Part shown: positions 13,547-46,500 of the stretch, piece after piece
Layout of the letters: every line of letters starts with the position of its first letter
Numbering within the stretch: the first letter of the stretch is position 1
Assembly: GCA_037379345.1 (NCBI GenBank)
Contig: CM074514.1
Span: forward strand, 19,778,001-19,842,000
DNA length: 64,000 nucleotides
From: Perna viridis
Taxonomy: Eukaryota
Reading direction: 5' to 3'
Notes under the pieces: generated by a model
Database searches by the model: none
What the model was told of the DNA's origin: nothing
The model's input: the letters and a program-made list of their open reading frames with translations, nothing else
Translations under genes and position numbers: made by a program

Positions 13547-13932
13547 CATCTAGTTAGGTTGTCACACTTTTGGAAGAACATCTAGTGAGGTTGTCACACT
13601 TTTGGAAGAACATCTAGTGAGGCTGTCATACTTTTGGAAGAACATCTAGTGAGGCTGTCATACTTTTGGAAGAACATCTAGTTGAGGCTGTCATACTTTT
13701 GGAAGTACATCTTGTCTAGTGAGGCTGTCATACTTTTGGAAGTACATCTTGTCTAGTGAGGCTGTCATACTTTTGGAAGAACATCTAGTGAGGCTGTCAT
13801 ACTTTTGGAAGAACATCTAGTGAGGCTGTCATACTTTTGGAAGAACATCTAGTGAGGCTGTCATACTTTTGGAATAACATCTAGTGAGGCTGTCATACTT
13901 TTGGAAGAACATCTTGTCTAGTGATGTTGTCA
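13547..13932. repeat. Minisatellite, 32 bp unit (37 bp variant), ~11-12 copies
   Basis: catctagtgaggctgtcatacttttggaagaa repeated. Confidence 0.95.
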
Positions 13933-14729: not shown

Positions 14730-15235
14730 GTGTATTCTATCAACTGTTGCCCTATTTGTTGTTATATGGTATCAACCATTTTTATGGTTTTTTACACTAT
14801 CAACCATACTGCCCTGTTTGGCTTTTTCTGTGTAATGTATTAATCTTGCAGCTCTATTTGGTTCTCTTGTGTATTGTGTCAGCCATGTTGCCCTATTTTG
14901 CTTTGCTTGTGTATTGTGTCAACCATGTTGTCCTATTTGGCTTTTTGTGTGTATTGTATTAATCTTGCAGCTATGTTTGGTTCTCCTGTGTTTTGTATCT
15001 GCCATGTTGCTCTCTTTTGCTTTGCTAACTAGTAGATTGTATCAGCCATGTTGCCATATTTTGCTTTGCTGTTATATTGTATCAGCCATGTGGCCCTATT
15101 TTGCTTTGCTATTATATTGTGTCAGCCATATTGCCCTATTCTGCTTTGCTAGTAGATTGCTTGTTGCCATATTTTGCTTGTGTCAGCCATGTTGCCCAGT
15201 TTGTGTTTTCTGTGTATTGTATCAACCATTCTATT
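14730..15235. repeat. Old degenerate minisatellite, ~37 bp unit
   Basis: tattgt(a/g)tcagccatgttgccctattttgctttgct recurs; explains the Cys/Leu-rich spurious ORFs 14624..14962 and 14869..15240. Confidence 0.85.
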
Positions 15236-17034: not shown

Positions 17035-17218
17035 TCTTTTTAAGCAGTTAATCATATTTAGTATTTGAATTTCGTTAGAAGGAACTTTAGGAATCTATCA
17101 TGGATGTAAAGGTTGTAAAATGAGTTTCTTTTTAAGCAGTTAATCATATTTAGTATTTGAATTTCGTTAGAAGGAACTTTAGGAATCTATCATGGATGTA
17201 AAGGTTGTAAAATGAGTT
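17035..17218. repeat. 92 bp tandem duplication (2 apparently identical copies)
   Basis: tctttttaagcagttaatc...aaaatgagtt at 17035 and 17127. Confidence 0.92.
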
Positions 17219-19976
17219 TACTGATGAAATTAGAGTGCAGTATTTATTTGCAATTTTTAAATCAAGATTAATCAAGATTGATGACATTGAATCTTTAAAT
17301 ATGATTTCTCTATTCTGTTAATATATCTGGAATATATCGGTGAAAATTGCAATACCTCTCAGAGGTAGTGTTTAACTGTAAATCTTCAGTGACCTTAACT
17401 GACCTTTAGTTATGCCACAAAAACTTTGTCATAAACTTCGAACGCTGAGAATGTGTCCTCAAATACTGTAAAGACATTGTCTTTTAATGACAAAGAAGTC
17501 ATGGATGTACTGATGAATGCATGTGAGACAGGATTGCTAGATCTTTGCTACATAACAAAAAGGGGGAAAGTTGACCATGTACCTAGGAAGAATTGAAAAT
17601 GAAGTAACAGAATATAATGTTTCTTAAATGTTTTTAAACCTTTATACTTTGACACCTTGCAGTATTTACAGAGCTGGATCAATACCAAAACTTGGAATGG
17701 ATTCAAATCTGTCTTATTATCTTGGGACTGTTGGCATGATTTGGCATATCTATTACCTAGGATGAAGTAGATAGTTGAAGTTTATTTCCTATTTGTATGC
17801 AGTAAAGACTTGATAAGGAGTTGAATAAGTACCATGATTGCTTTGCAAATATTGCATAAAGAGACCTCTGCATGTACAGCAGGCATTAATATATTGCTCC
17901 ACCCTGTTTAGCTACTATTTTTTGCCTTTAGTACTTAGTAGTCTTTCTGTGTATGTATGTGGTAAAAGATGGAGGTTTATCAGATATAAAGCAAAAGTAA
18001 TTAATGCTACCAATGTAGATGAACTTAAACGGGTGTAAGTTTTTGTGGTATGGCAAAAATCTTGAGTTGTCATTCCAAGTATTTGTCACTTTAATATATA
18101 ACATCTTCACATGTAGAACACTGTTTGTATGTTAACCCTTTCCTGTTGTCTGTGCAATAGAATAAGTAATAATTCAGTGTTTGATTTGAAGAATTTGAAA
18201 ATTTTATCACGAGAATGACTTGTGATAAAAGTAGAAAAGTCTGATTATGAGCATAGTGAAAACAAATTTTGGTTTTCTTTACTGTTTTGGTATTTTTTAT
18301 TTTTTTTTTGTCTCTAAACACATTCCTCATTCCACTTTTATCTCGAACTACCCACCCTTAACTTCCTGTCTGCTTTGCTCCCTTTTTGAGCATAAGGTCA
18401 ACATATGGTCACTTCTGCTTACTCCATGTCATTCTCAACTCTTTTAACATATTTCAAACATTCCTCAGCCATATTGTTTTTGGTCAGCCTTTTTGTCTTT
18501 TACCTTACCATATAAGGACTGTTTCTTTGATGTCTGAACTTTGCACTCTCAGATTAGTTTGATTTCTTGTATAACTTTTATAGACCATTTTGGCTCAATT
18601 TCAAATTAAATTCTTTCCATGTAGGATTTGGTCAATGTTCCATCTATAAGACAGACAGATAAAACAGTTGACAGAGTGATACATGCAGGGTATGAACATT
18701 AAAGGTTGTCCTATAACCCAGACTGCTAACATTTGTAAATAGGTAACTTAAATTGTGCTGGTAGAAAAGCAACCTGAATATATGATCAATTTTCAATTCA
18801 GATACATTCAGGATAAGCTTATATTATTTTTGGTAATTAAAGTTTTTATATACTTGCCCAACAGGAAAAATTTTACTAAAACTTTCTCATTAATATTGAG
18901 TGGAACTTGGTTTGTAGATAGCATTCATTGAAGTATATGGACCTTAATGCACTTATATAATTTGACCATATAACTTTGAAACATGATGCAGATGGTTGCA
19001 GTTTTGATCTACATGATTTATGCAGATGTATTAAGTAATATTTTAAATAATGAAAACTTTTATAAATCTATTTATGAATACTTTTTAGGTTCTAACTCTA
19101 CAGGGTAACTTGGTGTATTGCAATAGAAAACTTCATAGCCTTGCATGTGTAGAAACTATTTGATCTCTTTAACAATAGTTATAAATTTCTCCAACACTAA
19201 GGTCACTGGTTCTATAAATTATTCACAATTTATTTCCTAAATTTAAATACCATAGCTGAATGAAGACTTATTTATTGTCTAGTAACTACTTGTTGTACTT
19301 GTGTTGAGAAGTTTTCCTGTGAAATGAACTGATCGTTGGCTCTGTCTCGGCAATCAATGACTATACCAGTTTATGCTGACTACTTCCATACAGAACTTGT
19401 ATTACAATGATTGTAAAAGGTTACAATTGACCCACTTACGGTGGAAGTTATATTGATCATTGATTAGAGCCTGTTTTGTTCATTGATTGATTAATTATAA
19501 AGTGACTTTATTGATGTGAACTACAATTACAGTGTTCTTTATGAGTTTAGGTTGATAACTTGATTAACAGCTTCAGTGTTTCATGAAGTATCCAATATTT
19601 TCAACCAATTTTACCATGTTTACTATATTGCAGTATCTCTATAAGGAAATAGCAAAATCTTGAAAAATTCACAACTTTAAGACCTGTCAGAATTGTGGCT
19701 TGTATTTATGTTCAAGGATGTTTGAATGATGCTTAGTGCAATAATACTGTAAAGGTACATTTTTATTACATGTTGTTTTTTTGTGGTTTGGTCAAACAAA
19801 ACAACATAACCAGAAAACTGAGCTTCTACAAATCATGAAAATTAAAACATGTCAATAAAAGTGCCGACATACAAGAATCTTTTGTTAGCCATTGGATAGA
19901 ATTACATCTGATAGTGTTACACCAAAATGGGTTATCAGCTCACTCTTACAGATGTAACCTTTCTCCTAATGTGTCA

Positions 19977-28500: not shown

Positions 28501-31500
28501 ATGAAAGAAGTAAAGAAGGTCTACTTGTTTTATGGCCTTTATCTGTCATTACTTCAAAGAATACATAGAAGTTTGTAATGCTGATAAAACATCTCTATCA
28601 TTTGAACATTTCAGTTTAGTTACTTTTTCTCCAGGCCTTTGAAGTTATCTAGGGGTAATATCTGTTAAACTTAAATTCAACAATTCACTGTTAAAGAATG
28701 TTAAATTAAAAATTTATTACCCTTAAAAGTGATAAAAATCAAAAGTTTTCACTAGTTTACTAAAGATTTAATTAGTTTGAACTGTTTGTACCTTAGCTCT
28801 GTCTGTTACAATCTGTAAAATTGTTATTGAATTAGTGTTAGGTTTTAATGAAGTATTATGAGTATTTAAAATATAAAGTTACAGGTTTCGTAAAAATTTT
28901 ATTCTTTCTTATTCTTTGACTTGTAGTGGCATTCTCTCTTTTTTTTTTTTAAATAAAATTTAATTGTATTTTTGTTATATAAATTTCTTTATGTTCATTC
29001 AACATTCATATGTAAATCTAGGATCATTTTGTATGGTCACAAATAGTTTTCAACAATTTATAGTAGTTAACAGTGTGCCCTTCAATAGCTTTAATTATGC
29101 CCTTATCGTTTGGACACTATCCATCCCACTGTTCTATTTCACACCCAAGTTGTTCAGTTTGGCTTGATGAAATGAGTTTCTTGCAACATGGTTGATTTTA
29201 TGTCCACTGCAGAATTATAAATAAAAAAAGTGCAGCCATGGAAGACAAAAATGACAATTCAGTCTCAAGTTAAAAAAGAACCAGAACAAAAAAAAAACAA
29301 AGAAAACAACCTCTGTTTTGAAGGAAATTTAAAATTTTGTATTTCCTATGGTACTTGTTCTTAAGCTGTCTAGAAAGATTTTTGCCAGGATGTTTTACAC
29401 TTTAAAAAAAAAAATCATAATTAATGACCTAAATAAAACTGACTTCCCTGTCTCAAGACAAACTAATGTGGTGAGAGTAGATTCAGCAGATATTTAAAAA
29501 TATCATTCTAAATGCTAGGCAAAACTTAATTTCAAAGAAATGTACTGTAAAACTTCTCATTCTAAAATTAAAATTGGCTTCATGACTTTGCATTATGCAA
29601 ATCTTGTTTCATTAGTGTCAAAAATAGGGCAGGATTAAGGATGGTATGTAAGACAGATGATAGCTGCATAGAATTTTAAGTTCTGTAATCCATAAATCAA
29701 CTGACTGAAGCTTCTGTATGAAAATAAAAAAAAACAGCATTTGTTTTAAATAAGAATTGTTTTACTTATATATTTTCTACTATGACAGGGTGTACCTTCT
29801 CTTCATTGACGTTCTGATTTAAACTGCTCAGTACTGGTACTGTGAATTTTCTTTTATCCATGTGTATCAATTTTGTGGTTAATTGAAATTTCCTTAGTTC
29901 ATTGAAATTTTTGAATTTGTTTATTTCAGTAGAAAGTGTGCATTTATCAGAAACTTTTCATTTTGTTTGGAAATAGAATTGTTGTTTTGAGCAAACATGA
30001 TATTCACATTTATGGATGTTAAAATTTCTATTGCTATGCTTGTTATTGATTCCATTAATTTTTCTTTATCAGCATCATTCCTCTCCATGGTCCATGTTAC
30101 CTATATATGTAGAAATATGTGACCTCTTGTACATGTATTTAGTGTGTATAATATTTCTGACCCTTCAATCTTTCTTTTGGTGGACAACAGTGACCTGTTT
30201 CTCCAACAAGTCCTGGGCTTTATTTTTCACATTCCTTTGTATGTTTTCCCCACTATAAGATGTGCAGCATTATATGACTTTTGGCCTTTGGTAGTAAAAA
30301 CAACAGTTTGTGTTGACAAAGTTCCATTTGGTTTTCCTTTGTCAACACAAAATGACATTAACCAGATGTTGAATGTTTAGAAGCTAAGCAATGTCTTTCT
30401 CTGGATGTTTGTGTTGTGACAGTTCAATAGGTTTTTTATTAAGATTTACAATGGCCGAGATTATTAAAAGTGTTGTTTACTTTACACTGAAAATGGTTCT
30501 GCACAGCAACTGAAATATCGCAGCAACAAATATTCTGTTCTTGCCATTGAAGAATTTATTGTTTGATAAAATACAATCTTTTAAAATGTCAAAGTGACTG
30601 AAAAAGTGTTTTATACTTAGTGTTCAAACAACATAGGTATAAAACTGCATGTATTATAAAATATTTATTATTGTTAAGTAATTTATAGTCATTTATTCAT
30701 AACCTGTCTTGATATTATAGCATTAGGGTCTTTTATAACAAAACTTTTGTCACTTAATTTGTGGACTTTATAACAATTTTGTTATTTATTTATATGATTT
30801 TAAGATACATGTATTTAACTTGGATAACAGTTCATGGAGGAAAGAGAAAAAATTATTTACAGATTTAATAACTTTAAATTGGGTTGATATACAAACTTTA
30901 AATTGGGTTGATTACATATTTTAAAACAAATGAATTAAGTTTTTAGAAAATAAGAAACATCTAAGATGTTATATATTGATTTTCTGGTTTCTACTACAAG
31001 TTCAAAACACTGATCTCCCACATACTACTGACATTATAGTGCGAGGTTCATAGCAATTAAAAAAATTTACAGACCATATAATATAAACTATAGCTAATAA
31101 AACATGGACCTATAATCTAGAAACTTAAGTCTATATTTGGTTATTTTATGTTCTTTATTACTTACATCTATTTTCCTTATCTAGTCATTTTCCTTGGAAT
31201 ATATTCTTTTGATTTCTGCTTACTAACTCCAGATAACCAGGACATGATACTGCTTACTAACTCCAGATAACTGGGGCATGATACTGCTTACTAACTCCAG
31301 ATAACCGTGACATGATACTGCTTACTAACTCCAGATAACCGTGACATGATACTGCTTACTAACTCCAGATAACCGGGGCATGATACTGCTTACTAACTCC
31401 AGATAACTGTGACATGATACTGCTTACTAACTCCAGATGACCATGGCATGATATCATTCCAGTAGCGACAGTGAAAAAAGGTTTATCCCCAAACAAAGTT

Positions 31501-40500: not shown

Positions 40501-43500
40501 TAAATATAAAGGTTTTTGGAAGTGACATTTAGAAGTGTAATTTCTTAAGCATTTGTTCATAACCCAGATACAGTTACATTAAAAGCTATGAAATAATCAA
40601 ACATTGACAAGTCTGGATGAGTATCCATAACATATATTTAGAAAGAATTAAAAATTAAAAAGTCAAATTAAATACTTTAATACGAAATATATGTATCATT
40701 TTCTGCTATTTAGGAGTGATTTATACAATTTAAAATTATTTCTTTTAACAGGAAACAAGAGGAGATAGAGTAGTCTCCCCTTACAATATTGATCAGGCTC
40801 TGGATTCTAGGTAATGTTTAATGATAATACCTATATTCATGAACATATAATGATCTTTTCAAACATGGCAAATTATGTCTGTGTCTGTCTGTCAATAACT
40901 TTTTTGTTGAACAATAAATTGGGTATCATCAGTTAGATCTCTAAATCCAGCCTTTTCTTTTTGATCATGTTAAAACTTTCCTTAACGAAAGTCAAGCCTA
41001 TATTTGGCTCAGTAATAATATAAATATAATTTTCATGTCAAATGAGTAAGATACAGACATTTCTATTACATAGTGTTGTACTTGAAAATAAATACAAAGG
41101 AAAAATATAGAAAGCATTAGAAATATTTTGAACAATTGTTATCAGCTACATTTGTATTGCTACTAATTTTGAACTTGCAGAGATGCCATTGCTAAAGCTC
41201 TGTACAGTCGATTATTTACATGGCTGGTAGAGAGAATTAACTTAATCACATGTCGATCAGAGAGAGAGAAATCATCTTCACTGGCATTATTAGATATATT
41301 TGGATTTGAGGTATGTGTTATTTTATATATATATTTGGATCATAGGTAGCTGTTATTTGTTGAGATATTTTACTTTTTAGGAAGTTGTTATATATGCTGA
41401 GATTACCTTAATTTCATTGTCATTCACGATGATTTTTGAGTGATTTGAATTTGCTGATACAAATTTATCATATATTTTTTTCAATAAATAATTTCTATTG
41501 GAGGTCATCATCAAAGTTTTTTTGCAATGTATGTTCTTTAACTTGTAGCAGTAAGTTATCTATACAATTAAGTTTAATTCTGTCAACATTATATCAATTA
41601 CCATATGATGGTATATCAAACCATACTACAAACTTTACTAATATATCTGCAATTTGATTTGTATTTCTTCAGTATTGTGAAAGTAAAGTAATACATTGTA
41701 ATCGGTATTTTCTATTTCAGGATTTCCATACCAACAGTTTTGAGCAGCTTAACATTAACTATGCAAATGAGACAATGCAGTTCTTTTTTAATCAACACAT
41801 ATTTAGGATAGAACAGAATGAATATTCTAAAGAGAATATAGACTGGCGCCATATAGAATTCCAAGATAATCAACCAGTTATAGACTTACTAGCCAGTAAA
41901 CCAGCTGGTATATTGTGTATTTTGGACGATGAGTGTAGTTTCCCACAAGCTACAGACAATTCATTTTTAGAAAAGTGTCATTTTCATCATGCAAACAATC
42001 CGTTATATGATAAACCAAGGATGTCAGATCCTGAATTTTTTGTTCGTCACTACGCAGGAAAAATCAAATATAATGTAAGTCAAATGATTTGTTATCAGAT
42101 TTCACAAAATATTCTAGACTCTAAGATACTATGATGATACTTTTTGGTTGCAATTGAAATTCAACTTTTTGTTGGAAATTACAGTTTGTGGTTTAGCTGA
42201 TTCACCAAATCATGAAAATTCAATTCCTTAGGAGTGTTTATACTAAACAACTATATAATATCAATATAAGATTGGAAAATAAAAAAAAATACATAGGAGA
42301 AAAAGCATATTAAAAGACTATAATTATATTTCCATCATGGCTAGCGGAAATAAAGGGTATAAAGAGTAGAGGGTTTTTTTTTTTAATTTGTGGACATTTA
42401 AAATGTTTGTTAATGTGAAGTATACATTTAGGTTGACTAGACCTAGAACAGATGTATGGTAATTTGTTGACTCTTTTATTAACTATAGGCATTGACAATG
42501 TGGACTATTTCTATAACATTTCTATGCTATTGTTGACAATGTGGACTATTTCTATAACATTTATATGCTATTGTTGACAATGTGGACTATTTCTATAACA
42601 TTTCTATGCTATTGTTGACAATGTGGACTATTTCTATAACATTTATATGCTATTGTTGACAATGTGGACTATTTCTATAACATTTATATGCTATTGTTGA
42701 CAATGTGGACTATTTCTATAACATTTATATGCTATTGTTGACAATGTGGACTATTTCTATAACATTTATATGCTATTGTTGACAATGTGGACTATTTCTA
42801 TAACATTTCTATGCTATTGTTGACAATGTGGACTATTTCTATAACATTTATATGCTATTGTTGACAATGTGGACTATTTCTATAACATTTATATGCTATT
42901 GTTGACAGGTTCAGCAATTTTTAGATAAAAACAAAGATACACTGAGGAGTGATGTTGTAGAACTATTATGTGAGAGCAAAAATAGGGTAAGTATTAAGTA
43001 TAAACTGTGGGAAAATAAAGCAGTAACTTTTAAAATGCAGGAAAATTTTGAATAATTACCGGTATTTTAATGTGTAGATCCAAAGTCACTGATCAAAGTA
43101 AACCACAAATGAACAGAGTTATGTCCCTTCTTATGGGATGACATTAGGTTTCATCCATAATTATAGAACTTGATGAAATAGTAGAGGAACAAGATAGTGT
43201 TTCAACTTACTAAGCTATATGAACTCTGCTTATATTTTTGAAATAAAAAAAGAAATGTTTTGTTTACAGACTATAGCCCAGATGTTTAAGGAAATGAGAG
43301 ATCGATTTATAACTAAAACATTAAGTAAAACTACAGGAAGATATGTTACTGTAAAACCCAGAACACCTACAGTGGCAGCTGGCTTCACAGAATCTTTGTT
43401 GTCACTGATTGACAGTATGTCTAAGTAAGTGTGGACAAATTAGTTATCAAATTATGTCCTGTTTCTTAAAAATACATCTTGAGAAAAGAAACATGAATTC

Positions 43501-46500
43501 TTGAAAGTGTATGGACAATTTATGCATTCTTTATTTGCTTATGAATGATAATTGTAGTAAAGAAATGTTAAAGTATAAAAAGCCATGAAAAGTTCATTGA
43601 TGAACCACAAAAGGCAATGTCTTTACCAAGAAAGTATGTCATTTTTTTAGAGTTTAACATTTGTCTTATTCTGAATGTTTTTTCCAGTTTTTTTTCCATT
43701 GTTATGATGTAACTAGTATATTATCTGTTAACATTTCATTAATTGATTTTGTGAGAGAGAGAGAGAGAGAGAGAAACTATGATTTGACATAAAAAATGAG
43801 TTGATCAAGTGTTGATTATCTCACATTGTCATTTCTACATTTTAGGTGTAACCCATTTTTTGTGAGGTGTCTGAAGCCCAACAACCACAAAGCCCCAATG
43901 GTCTTTGAATCTACAGTAGTGTTAGATCAGCTGAGATACACTGGAATGTTGGAGACTATTAAAATTAGGAAGATGGGTTACCCAATTAGGGTCAGATTCC
44001 CTGCCTTCATTGATAGGTGAGACTAATACTTACTCCATCACCTTGCCCAATGAAAGTCAGATCCCCTGCCTTCATTGATAGATGAGAATATTACTTATTG
44101 TCCCCCACCTTGCCCAATTAGGGTCAGATTCCCTGCCTTCATTGGTAGGTGATTCCCCTGCCTTGCCCAGTCAGAGTCAGATTCTCTGCCTTCATTGGTA
44201 GGTGATTCCCCAGCCTTGCCCAGTCAGAGTCAGATTCTCTGCCATCATTGGTAGGTGATTCCCCTGCCTTGCCCAATCGGAGTCAGATTCCCTGCCTTCA
44301 TTGGTAGGTGATTTCCCAGCCTTGCCCAATCAGAGTCAGGTTCCCTGCCTTCATTGGTAGGTGATTCTCCAGCCTTGCCCAATCACAGTCAGATTCCCTG
44401 CCTGCATTGGTAGGTGATTCCCCAGCCTTGCCCAGTCAGAGTCAGATTCTCTGCCTTCATTGATAGATGGGACTATCAGAAGCCTGAATTAAGCAATATT
44501 TGTCCTTTGTTACAAAATGTTTTTTCATATTCTCTGTACTGTTATTGTTCTGAATTTGCAATTTTCAATGAAATACATCATTCATGTTGAAAGGAATTAC
44601 AGTCATTGCTAATGCTTCTAAGTCCCATTTCTCACAATAATAAAAATATAGCAATAAGTTTGGAATAAACACTAATCAAAATTGTTATCTTTGAATATGA
44701 TCGGGGATTTATCTTTGAATATGATCAGGGATTTGCTTTAGGGTTTTTTTTTTATAGTGGTGATGGATATAAAACAAGACACAATCCTCTATTAATTTGT
44801 ATTTTAAATGTCCATACTCAGAAGCCAGTCCCACCTGCACCACTTTATTTTGTACACTGTTTGCTTAGCACTTAGTACGTGTTTGCAGTAATTCAGCTTT
44901 TGATATTAATAGCAATCATACCAAAAACTTTTTCTTCTGATTTCTTAAACTGAGGTAGCTGTATTTATTTTTTTTTTTTGCCACAATTGACTATGACAAT
45001 GCATTCTTTCCAAATAAGAAAAAAAGGTGTAGTCATTGTTTATAGTCAAGTCATATACACTAATAATCAATGTGGAAAGGGTAAAGTTTAAAATGCACTG
45101 AATTATTTAGCAATCAAATCAATTAACTTCAGATCAGTTAGTAAAAAAAAAAAATAGGAAACTGTGTACTGCTAATATACTTTATTAATCTGAAGAATCA
45201 GATATAATTTTTTTTGTTTTGACAACAGGTATAGGTTCTTGTTACAAGGACAGAAGATAAGCACCCATCTTCTGCCTAATGATGTTTGTGCCACGATATT
45301 GAAGACACAGGGCACTGCTTTTATTGACCAGTACAGACTTGGGGCAACAAAGGTAACATTGTTTTGTTTCATATTGGATACTTTTTTTAAAAATATATGA
45401 AAAAATAAATGACCTTCCTTTCCTCTATCAGATCACCGATATATATAATTAACTACCAAGTGGTCAGATTGAATACTTTTGTAAACCAAAAATAAAAAAT
45501 TTATGAAGTAAATTTTTACTTTGAGTTTGTATCTCTGTTTTCTTTTTATTTGGTACACAAGGAAAAACATCAAAACAATGGGAGTAGAGTATGTTGATGT
45601 TAATGATTGCTTCATCGTCCATTGTAAACAGAATCGCTGTTGTTCTATTATTTCTACTGAACTTTGAAGCCAAAATAAATTCATAAATAATTGATGTTTT
45701 AGGTGTTCATGAAGGAAACTTTTGAACAGAGACTTGATGAAGTATGTGGAAAGATCAAGTTAGATTCTGTTTTGATACTACAAAAATCAATCAGGACTTT
45801 CCTGGCTAGAAGAACATTCTTACGTACACTAGAATCTACAAGGAAAATACAGGCGGCTCTGCTCAGGTGGAGGGAAAGGTAAAGTATTTAAGTGTTACAT
45901 TTTCTTTTTGTTTTTTTTTTTAATTTCCCTCAATATGGAGGCATAGTGAAAGGTGTCATGTAGATATGTATCTTCAGTTTTTGTCTGTCTGTTGTGAGAA
46001 CCTCGTCCTGATATAAAATAATTTTAACTCAATTATAAATGTATTTTTGTATAGTTCCTCTTCAGCCATATATTGGGGATACACATTAATAGAAATATTC
46101 TTGTCTGTCCATCTGTTTATCTATGTTCCTTGTATGTGCAACTCTTCCTAAATTGTTTGATGGATTTTGATGAAACTTAATATGTAGGCATTAAATGTTT
46201 TGTGTATGAAGCTAAATAATCATTGCCAGGTTCTCTGAAAGGGAGATAATCTAACTTAAGCAGGATTGTGTCATTAAGTGAGTTTTGAAACATTTGACTA
46301 GAATATTGAAAACAATATTTTTTCCAAATACACCATTTCGATAATCCCCCCAATTAATCTTGGGTAGTCAGTGGCTTTCAATAAACTAGGCTTCTTATTA
46401 ATGAACTAATTGGTACTACCTAATTTGAATGAATCCATGAACTAAGCCATATTCCATCACATTTAAACAAAATTCTGATTTTATAATTTTTAATTTGCAA

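Follow-up and report, generated by a model that had tools for sequence, protein, structure and literature searches.

The stretch of DNA analysed here (the window) comprises 64,000 nucleotides of the Perna viridis genome, with a GC content of about 30–33%. When the window and 150 kb downstream of it were searched with tblastn, a myosin gene was found to run from 22.5 to 92.6 kb with no visible break. A Mytilus coruscus myosin (P0001) is 94% identical to the exon at 41721–42074, and the named protein hits among the homologues are 'myosin-XV-like'. The full-length homologue P0024 (2697 amino acids) harbours motor, IQ, MyTH4, SH3 and FERM-type domains. By sequence likeness, the host gene is a myosin XV-like unconventional myosin of the MyTH4/SH3/FERM type. 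Its spliced homology model contains 49 introns, and two junctions stay unresolved. The match to Mytilus P0001 (568 amino acids) ends within exon 13, while P0020 (814 amino acids) reaches exon 17; both are far shorter than P0024 and look like split annotations.

The feature under study lies at the 3′ end of coding exon 14 (43846–44016, forward strand, 171 nt), which encodes the end of the motor domain. This exon, whose number in the homology model is that given in the original prediction, was located by tblastn with P0020, P0022 and P0024, by the spliced model, by RNA joints and by Pfam (Myosin_head match, 1.7e-16). It is followed by intron 14 (1212 nt) and coding exon 15 (45229–45352, forward strand), the acceptor partner of exon 14 in both the spliced model and RNA. 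The authentic donor, TAG/GTGAGA (the slash marks the splice site), is located at 44017–44022 on the forward strand, is in phase 2 and has its GT at 44017–44018. As translation confirmed, an in-frame TGA at 44018–44020 directly follows the splice site, 5′ of all the copies described below, and use of any downstream donor would therefore introduce a premature stop. The position of intron 14 recurs in several distant homologues, e.g. at the loci L002, L004, L005, L007 and L029.

The array across the exon 14/intron 14 boundary

The end of exon 14 and its donor are repeated eight times in the intron, as originally predicted, although we corrected the start of the unit to 43978 and the end of the last copy to 44475. 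In total, nine units in register, the exon end itself and eight degenerate copies, occupy 43978–44475. They start at 43978, 44043, 44110, 44163, 44216, 44269, 44322, 44375 and 44428, and are thus spaced head-to-tail by 65, 67 and then six times 53 nt. TRF detected the array with scores of 249 and 595, far above chance, with a period of 53, 6.9 copies and 91% identity. The repeated part of the exon had been put at the last 36 nt; these are indeed repeated, but the repeat extends to 39 nt, the first three with one mismatch. Over 40 nt, copies 1 to 8 share 34, 38, 34, 33, 35, 35, 34 and 34 positions with the exon end.

In the alignment, unit 0 (43978–44042, forward strand, as are all units) is the template of the array and consists of the last 39 nt of the exon and the first 26 nt of the intron. 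Copy 1 (44043–44109, 67 nt) has lost the GT and reads TAG/ATG at 44082. Copies 2 to 7 (44110–44427, delimited by TRF and alignment) form a homogenised core of six 53-nt units, each with two pseudo-donors, TTG/GTAGGT and TAG/GTGATT (44145 and 44149 in the first of these units, 44410 and 44414 in the last). The first of the two arises 4 nt upstream of the other through a single A>G change. Copy 2 is identical to the exon over 32 nt. Copy 8 (44428–44475) is a boundary unit that has likewise lost the GT (TAG/ATG at 44467), and is a hybrid whose 5′ half resembles copy 3 and whose 3′ half resembles unit 0 and copy 1. The GT is thus retained in six of the eight copies. The donor readings of the copies and the 32-nt match of copy 2 had been part of the original prediction and held in our alignment.

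Copies 2 to 7 have one shortening of 12–14 nt and one A>G in common. Because the loss of the +5 G is bound to this shortening, it represents one inherited event and not six. Judged from the alignment, the eight altered donors trace to two or three events, namely a G>A that occurred once or twice and a deletion that occurred once. The 17-nt spacer of unit 0 (44026–44042) has no second match on either strand of the window with up to four mismatches. Coding use of the copies was rejected, as every reading frame closes within the array.

Three further observations were made in and around the array. Just 3′ of the real donor, the 8 nt at 44026–44033 match the usual donor consensus in reverse complement, possibly by chance; they could pair back on the donor, although the predicted folds favour another partner. 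At the end of the array, 44462–44481 forms a perfect 6-bp hairpin with the dead donor of copy 8 in its loop, and may mark where the ancestral intron began, as well as the breakpoint of the initial duplication. Further downstream, about 40 nt at 44621–44661 are a fragment of a dispersed repeat, to which loose-ended contigs of other loci were drawn in each of the four DNA runs.

Donor strength and splicing of exon 14

To score the donors, a matrix was built from 39 other donors of the same gene (49 predicted, of which nine were dropped because of a weak margin and one was the focal donor). The real donor scored 6.91, with 11 of the 39 gene donors lower, and ranked first among all GT sites between 43846 and 45228. 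The pseudo-donors TAG/GTGATT and TTG/GTAGGT scored 4.81 and 3.93, with three of the 39 gene donors below each, whereas copies 1 and 8 scored −0.35 and −5.32. The scoring thus placed all copies below the real donor, but with a small matrix from a single gene and not the species-trained model that had been proposed. The gained TTG/GTAGGT is of background grade, because 37 of the 39 other introns of the gene contain sites scoring at least 3.93 within 460 nt of their donor. A crude duplex estimate with the U1 5′ end motif gave −9.6 for TTG/GTAGGT and −9.5 for the real donor.

Splicing was assessed in RNA data covering 43001–46000, namely, out of 24 runs, three raw RNA runs from one study (X21–X23) and one RNA-like contig set. 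From each raw run 19–25% of the reads were used, joints with fewer than three reads in a run were left out, and NMD was active in the animals. All 31 reads of the exon 14–exon 15 joint (4, 17 and 10 in X21, X22 and X23) connect 44016 to 45229, which is also the joint found in one RNA contig and which confirms the predicted true donor. The joint 43424–43846 was supported by 3, 4 and 7 reads and that between exons 15 and 16 by 4 reads in each of the three runs. Neither the three raw runs nor the contig set showed other joints or loose ends at the exon 15 acceptor, and no A>G at the exon 14 end was seen in RNA reads. Over copies 2 to 8 the RNA depth was zero in all six bins between 44101 and 44700, in the three runs and in the contig set. 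The depth in the bin 44001–44100 (0.73, 2.78 and 1.58) is that expected from its 16 exon bases alone. In the reads seen, which are steady-state RNA of low depth from one study, the original donor is used exclusively.

It had been proposed that the array could be a copy-number-dependent unproductive-splicing or NMD element. In such a scheme, the 12 GT-bearing pseudo-donors would send a small share of transcripts to NMD and so tune the dosage of the myosin. Any downstream donor would retain the TGA, and dozens of junctions follow further downstream. In addition, TTG/GTAGGT equals the real donor in the crude U1 estimate, the unit sequence varies among animals (see below), and repeat length is reported to influence how the transcripts of thousands of human loci are spliced (PMC10078293). 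However, the joints from the copies to 45229 that this proposal predicts were searched for in the three raw runs and none was found among the 31 reads. At this low depth and with NMD active, the pooled reads limit copy use to at most 9.2% (95% upper bound) of steady-state mRNA, and a larger share could be concealed by NMD. Moreover, the pseudo-donors fall in the bottom tenth of the gene's donors, no conservation was found in 20 distant homologous loci, and the variation seen is in the sequence of the units. Among the features of alternative splicing coupled to NMD, the premature stop is present, conditional on use of a downstream site, while the unproductive isoform is absent from the steady-state RNA seen. 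We therefore consider a dosage-tuning role very unlikely.

The scores raise another possibility, also voiced in the original prediction as selection against competing donors. Copies with a full-strength donor would be harmful, as they would add the stop, and only alleles with weakened donors would have spread. The array would then be functionless, and its sequence would record purifying selection. This would fit the finding that all eight copies score below the real donor and that copies 2 to 7 lack the +5 G, which is present in 31 of the 39 gene donors. Only two or three independent events are involved, however, each with a chance of 0.2–0.3 at the observed divergence; for the GT of copy 1, a hit has a chance of about 0.29 given about ten random changes. 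Furthermore, a second GT arose in the unit that expanded, its hexamer GTAGGT recurs as the predicted donor of a later exon in the same gene, and the finding was selected for showing this very pattern. We regard such a filter as possible but doubtful; further evidence on it is given in the next section.

Presence in the genome and other arrays of the gene

When 43960–44480 was compared to the genome (723 Mb, 46 contigs) in a search that skips common words, the only match was the locus itself, and a dispersed element or second locus was rejected. An assembly artefact was likewise rejected, as the array is present in the contigs of all four DNA runs, which represent four samples from three studies (one run, X1, may be the source sample). 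The region of the real donor and copy 1 (43983–44142) showed no differences across these contigs, and the end of copy 8 with its flank was recovered from all four runs. That the GT losses of copies 1 and 8 are common to all four DNA runs is in line with a filter on strong copies. Two variants were found in the inner units: X6 carries 44170 G>A at a depth of 48 out of 48, and X3 carries 44392 G>A at 7.7 out of 7.7. The polymorphism seen among animals is thus one of sequence, in contigs built from short words that cannot count units and among which no joint was listed. Contig cover has holes at 44240–44329 in X6 and at 44330–44419 in X4, and no contig bridges either. Estimation of copy number from contig depth was dropped; the holes would fit shorter alleles but prove nothing.

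Only distant homologues were returned by the metagenome scan, the best hit having 77% protein identity. In the 20 distant homologous loci checked, out of 80 fetched, no copies of the exon end were found downstream of it.

Furthermore, we searched the 70-kb gene for non-coding arrays with a period of at least 20. TRF reported 11, of which three touch splice sites, compared to 0.56 expected from random placement. The probability of at least three contacts is 0.015, and that of at least two after removal of the focal array is 0.08, with a test defined post hoc. A gene of this kind should thus contain some junction-touching arrays, and there is at most a hint of an excess.

The first of the two other arrays (42492–42908; ten units of 41 nt, 98% alike) ends exactly at the acceptor of exon 12. 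Each unit repeats the end of the intron as far as the A of its AG, leaving 415 nt without an AG, which again would suit a filter on duplicated splice signals. On the acceptor side, this array is the mirror image of the exon 14 donor array. The second (two units of 51 nt, L083:6319–6420) duplicates the donor of a 51-nt myosin exon predicted from its likeness to P0024 (L083:6279–6420, i.e. 80279–80420 from the window start). Its single copy comprises the last 11 nt of the exon, the donor AGG/GTAGGT and 40 nt of the intron, with four changes including the +5 G, and the donor score drops from 5.41 in the template to 1.47 in the copy. This second donor duplication without a +5 G also favours a filter, while the tolerance of identical copies in human F7 (PMC1557585; see below) speaks against the need for one.

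The region of the window is rich in tandem repeats in general. More minisatellites and an exact 92-nt duplication were found at 13547–13932, 14798–15159, 31216–31453 and 17035–17219. A 2.4-kb array of 30/60-nt units closely follows the myosin gene (about 95173–97580 from the window start, L085).

Origin of the array and junction-spanning repeats in other animals

We propose, with a probability of about 0.78, that the array is a minisatellite whose first unit lies across the exon 14/intron 14 boundary and whose copies are likely passive, without a regulatory job. This agrees with the neutral expansion considered in the original prediction. A slippage or repair event would first have duplicated a stretch of about 65 nt that spans the junction. 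A single derived unit of 53 nt, with one deletion and one A>G, would then have expanded and been homogenised, while the two border copies would have escaped homogenisation. The array was probably tolerated because the donor that flanks the exon is the most upstream one and would be chosen first; no other GT of exon and intron scores as high. Weak purifying selection may have filtered out strong copies, though the pattern does not require it. On the other hand, all eight copies and the single L083 copy are weaker than their templates and three of the 11 arrays touch splice sites, which hints that drift may not be the whole explanation. In human CBS and 6-16, moreover, the nearest pseudo-sites are used (cited in PMC1557585), which counts against a passive view.

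The changes in the copies might have a mutational cause that is compatible with the passive minisatellite. The end of the exon forms an imperfect palindrome. Template switching during replication, a mechanism already known (PMC8794818), could have written a number of the changes seen in the copies, among them the A>G behind the new GT; the altered donors would then be by-products of DNA structure. In copy 1, three changes lie close together and complete a perfect 7-bp hairpin stem. The A>G was the most stabilising of the single changes tried in the sense RNA fold (−6.5 kcal/mol), in which it is predicted to close a stem over both pseudo-donors. With DNA parameters, 14 changes had a mean class-matched percentile of 0.31–0.34. 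However, among random sets, 11 of 169 were as extreme for DNA minus, 12 of 162 for DNA plus and 37 of 155 for sense RNA, the bias was absent for sense RNA, whole-copy tests were mostly null, and the idea was conceived post hoc. Hairpin-biased mutation was therefore dropped as a result, its nominal p of 0.008–0.018 having become 11/169 and 12/162 after calibration by simulation. The modelled bias is a hint of template switching and not a result, and we think it unlikely, if conceivable, that this mechanism shaped the copies.

Selective masking of the copies, and not of the real donor, by RNA structure was also rejected, since the mean unpaired probability of the copy GTs (0.16–0.31) shows no contrast with that of the real donor (0.25). 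The fold z-scores of the units range from −0.95 to −2.65 for copies 1 to 7, with +0.23 for copy 8. A combined scheme can be imagined in which the hairpin-prone exon end seeded a minisatellite whose 53-nt unit has two hairpin-masked donors downstream of the in-frame stop, and array length sets the share of transcripts sent to NMD. If true, array length would be a heritable dosage dial for the myosin in the mussel, hidden in steady-state RNA; we find this scheme hardly credible.

By contrast, the passive minisatellite has close counterparts. Borensztajn et al. (2006; PMC1557585) described a 37-bp VNTR in intron 7 of human F7. As in the mussel, the first unit crosses the exon-intron boundary and the donor is reiterated downstream, there four to eight times, with the most upstream donor alone used, a choice shown by experiment for F7. 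The F7 copies match the real donor exactly and hold 4 nt of the exon, whereas the mussel units hold 39 and the donor of every copy is altered. Unlike the F7 repeat as described there, the mussel array changed its unit length, from 65–67 to 53 nt. In addition, the pseudo-sites of F7 proved functional, being activated once the first site was mutated, while those of the mussel are predicted donors. Similar junction-spanning repeats reiterate the donor in human CBS intron 13, 6-16 (IFI6) intron 2, LMNB2 and PDGF intron 4; in LMNB2 and PDGF the real site alone is used (cited in PMC1557585). In human segmental duplications, repeats at exon-intron boundaries are reported to be frequent (PMC2812944).

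Among invertebrates, the amphioxus 'mirage' minisatellites of Adh3 (work cited in PMC3087553) and of the globin genes BflGb6 and BflGb9 (PMC3087553) are likewise tandem duplications of 5′ or 3′ exon-intron boundaries. According to that report, many copies have kept GT or AG while others have not, and regular splicing is undisturbed. The inner units evolve in concert with the border units excluded (PMC3087553), as proposed for the mussel array. The 'mirages' belong to a different phylum and show length instability between haplotypes, whereas in the mussel array variants of unit sequence alone were seen. The literature searched held no example of a junction-spanning minisatellite in a mollusc, which is weak evidence of absence.

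The exon 14 array consists of head-to-tail units within the 10–160 nt of these repeats, with the real boundary in the first unit and a reiterated splice signal. By its structure and its first-site usage, seen at low depth with NMD active, it fits the F7-type or 'mirage' class. Junction-spanning minisatellites now extend to a mussel, and the reads are direct evidence that the first donor prevails in this animal as well. Three arrays of one gene touch splice sites, all with disarmed copies. Taken alone, the array matters little, and single human loci cannot measure selection on duplicated splice signals. A repeat-rich bivalve genome, on the other hand, could give enough cases to measure whether selection erodes them.
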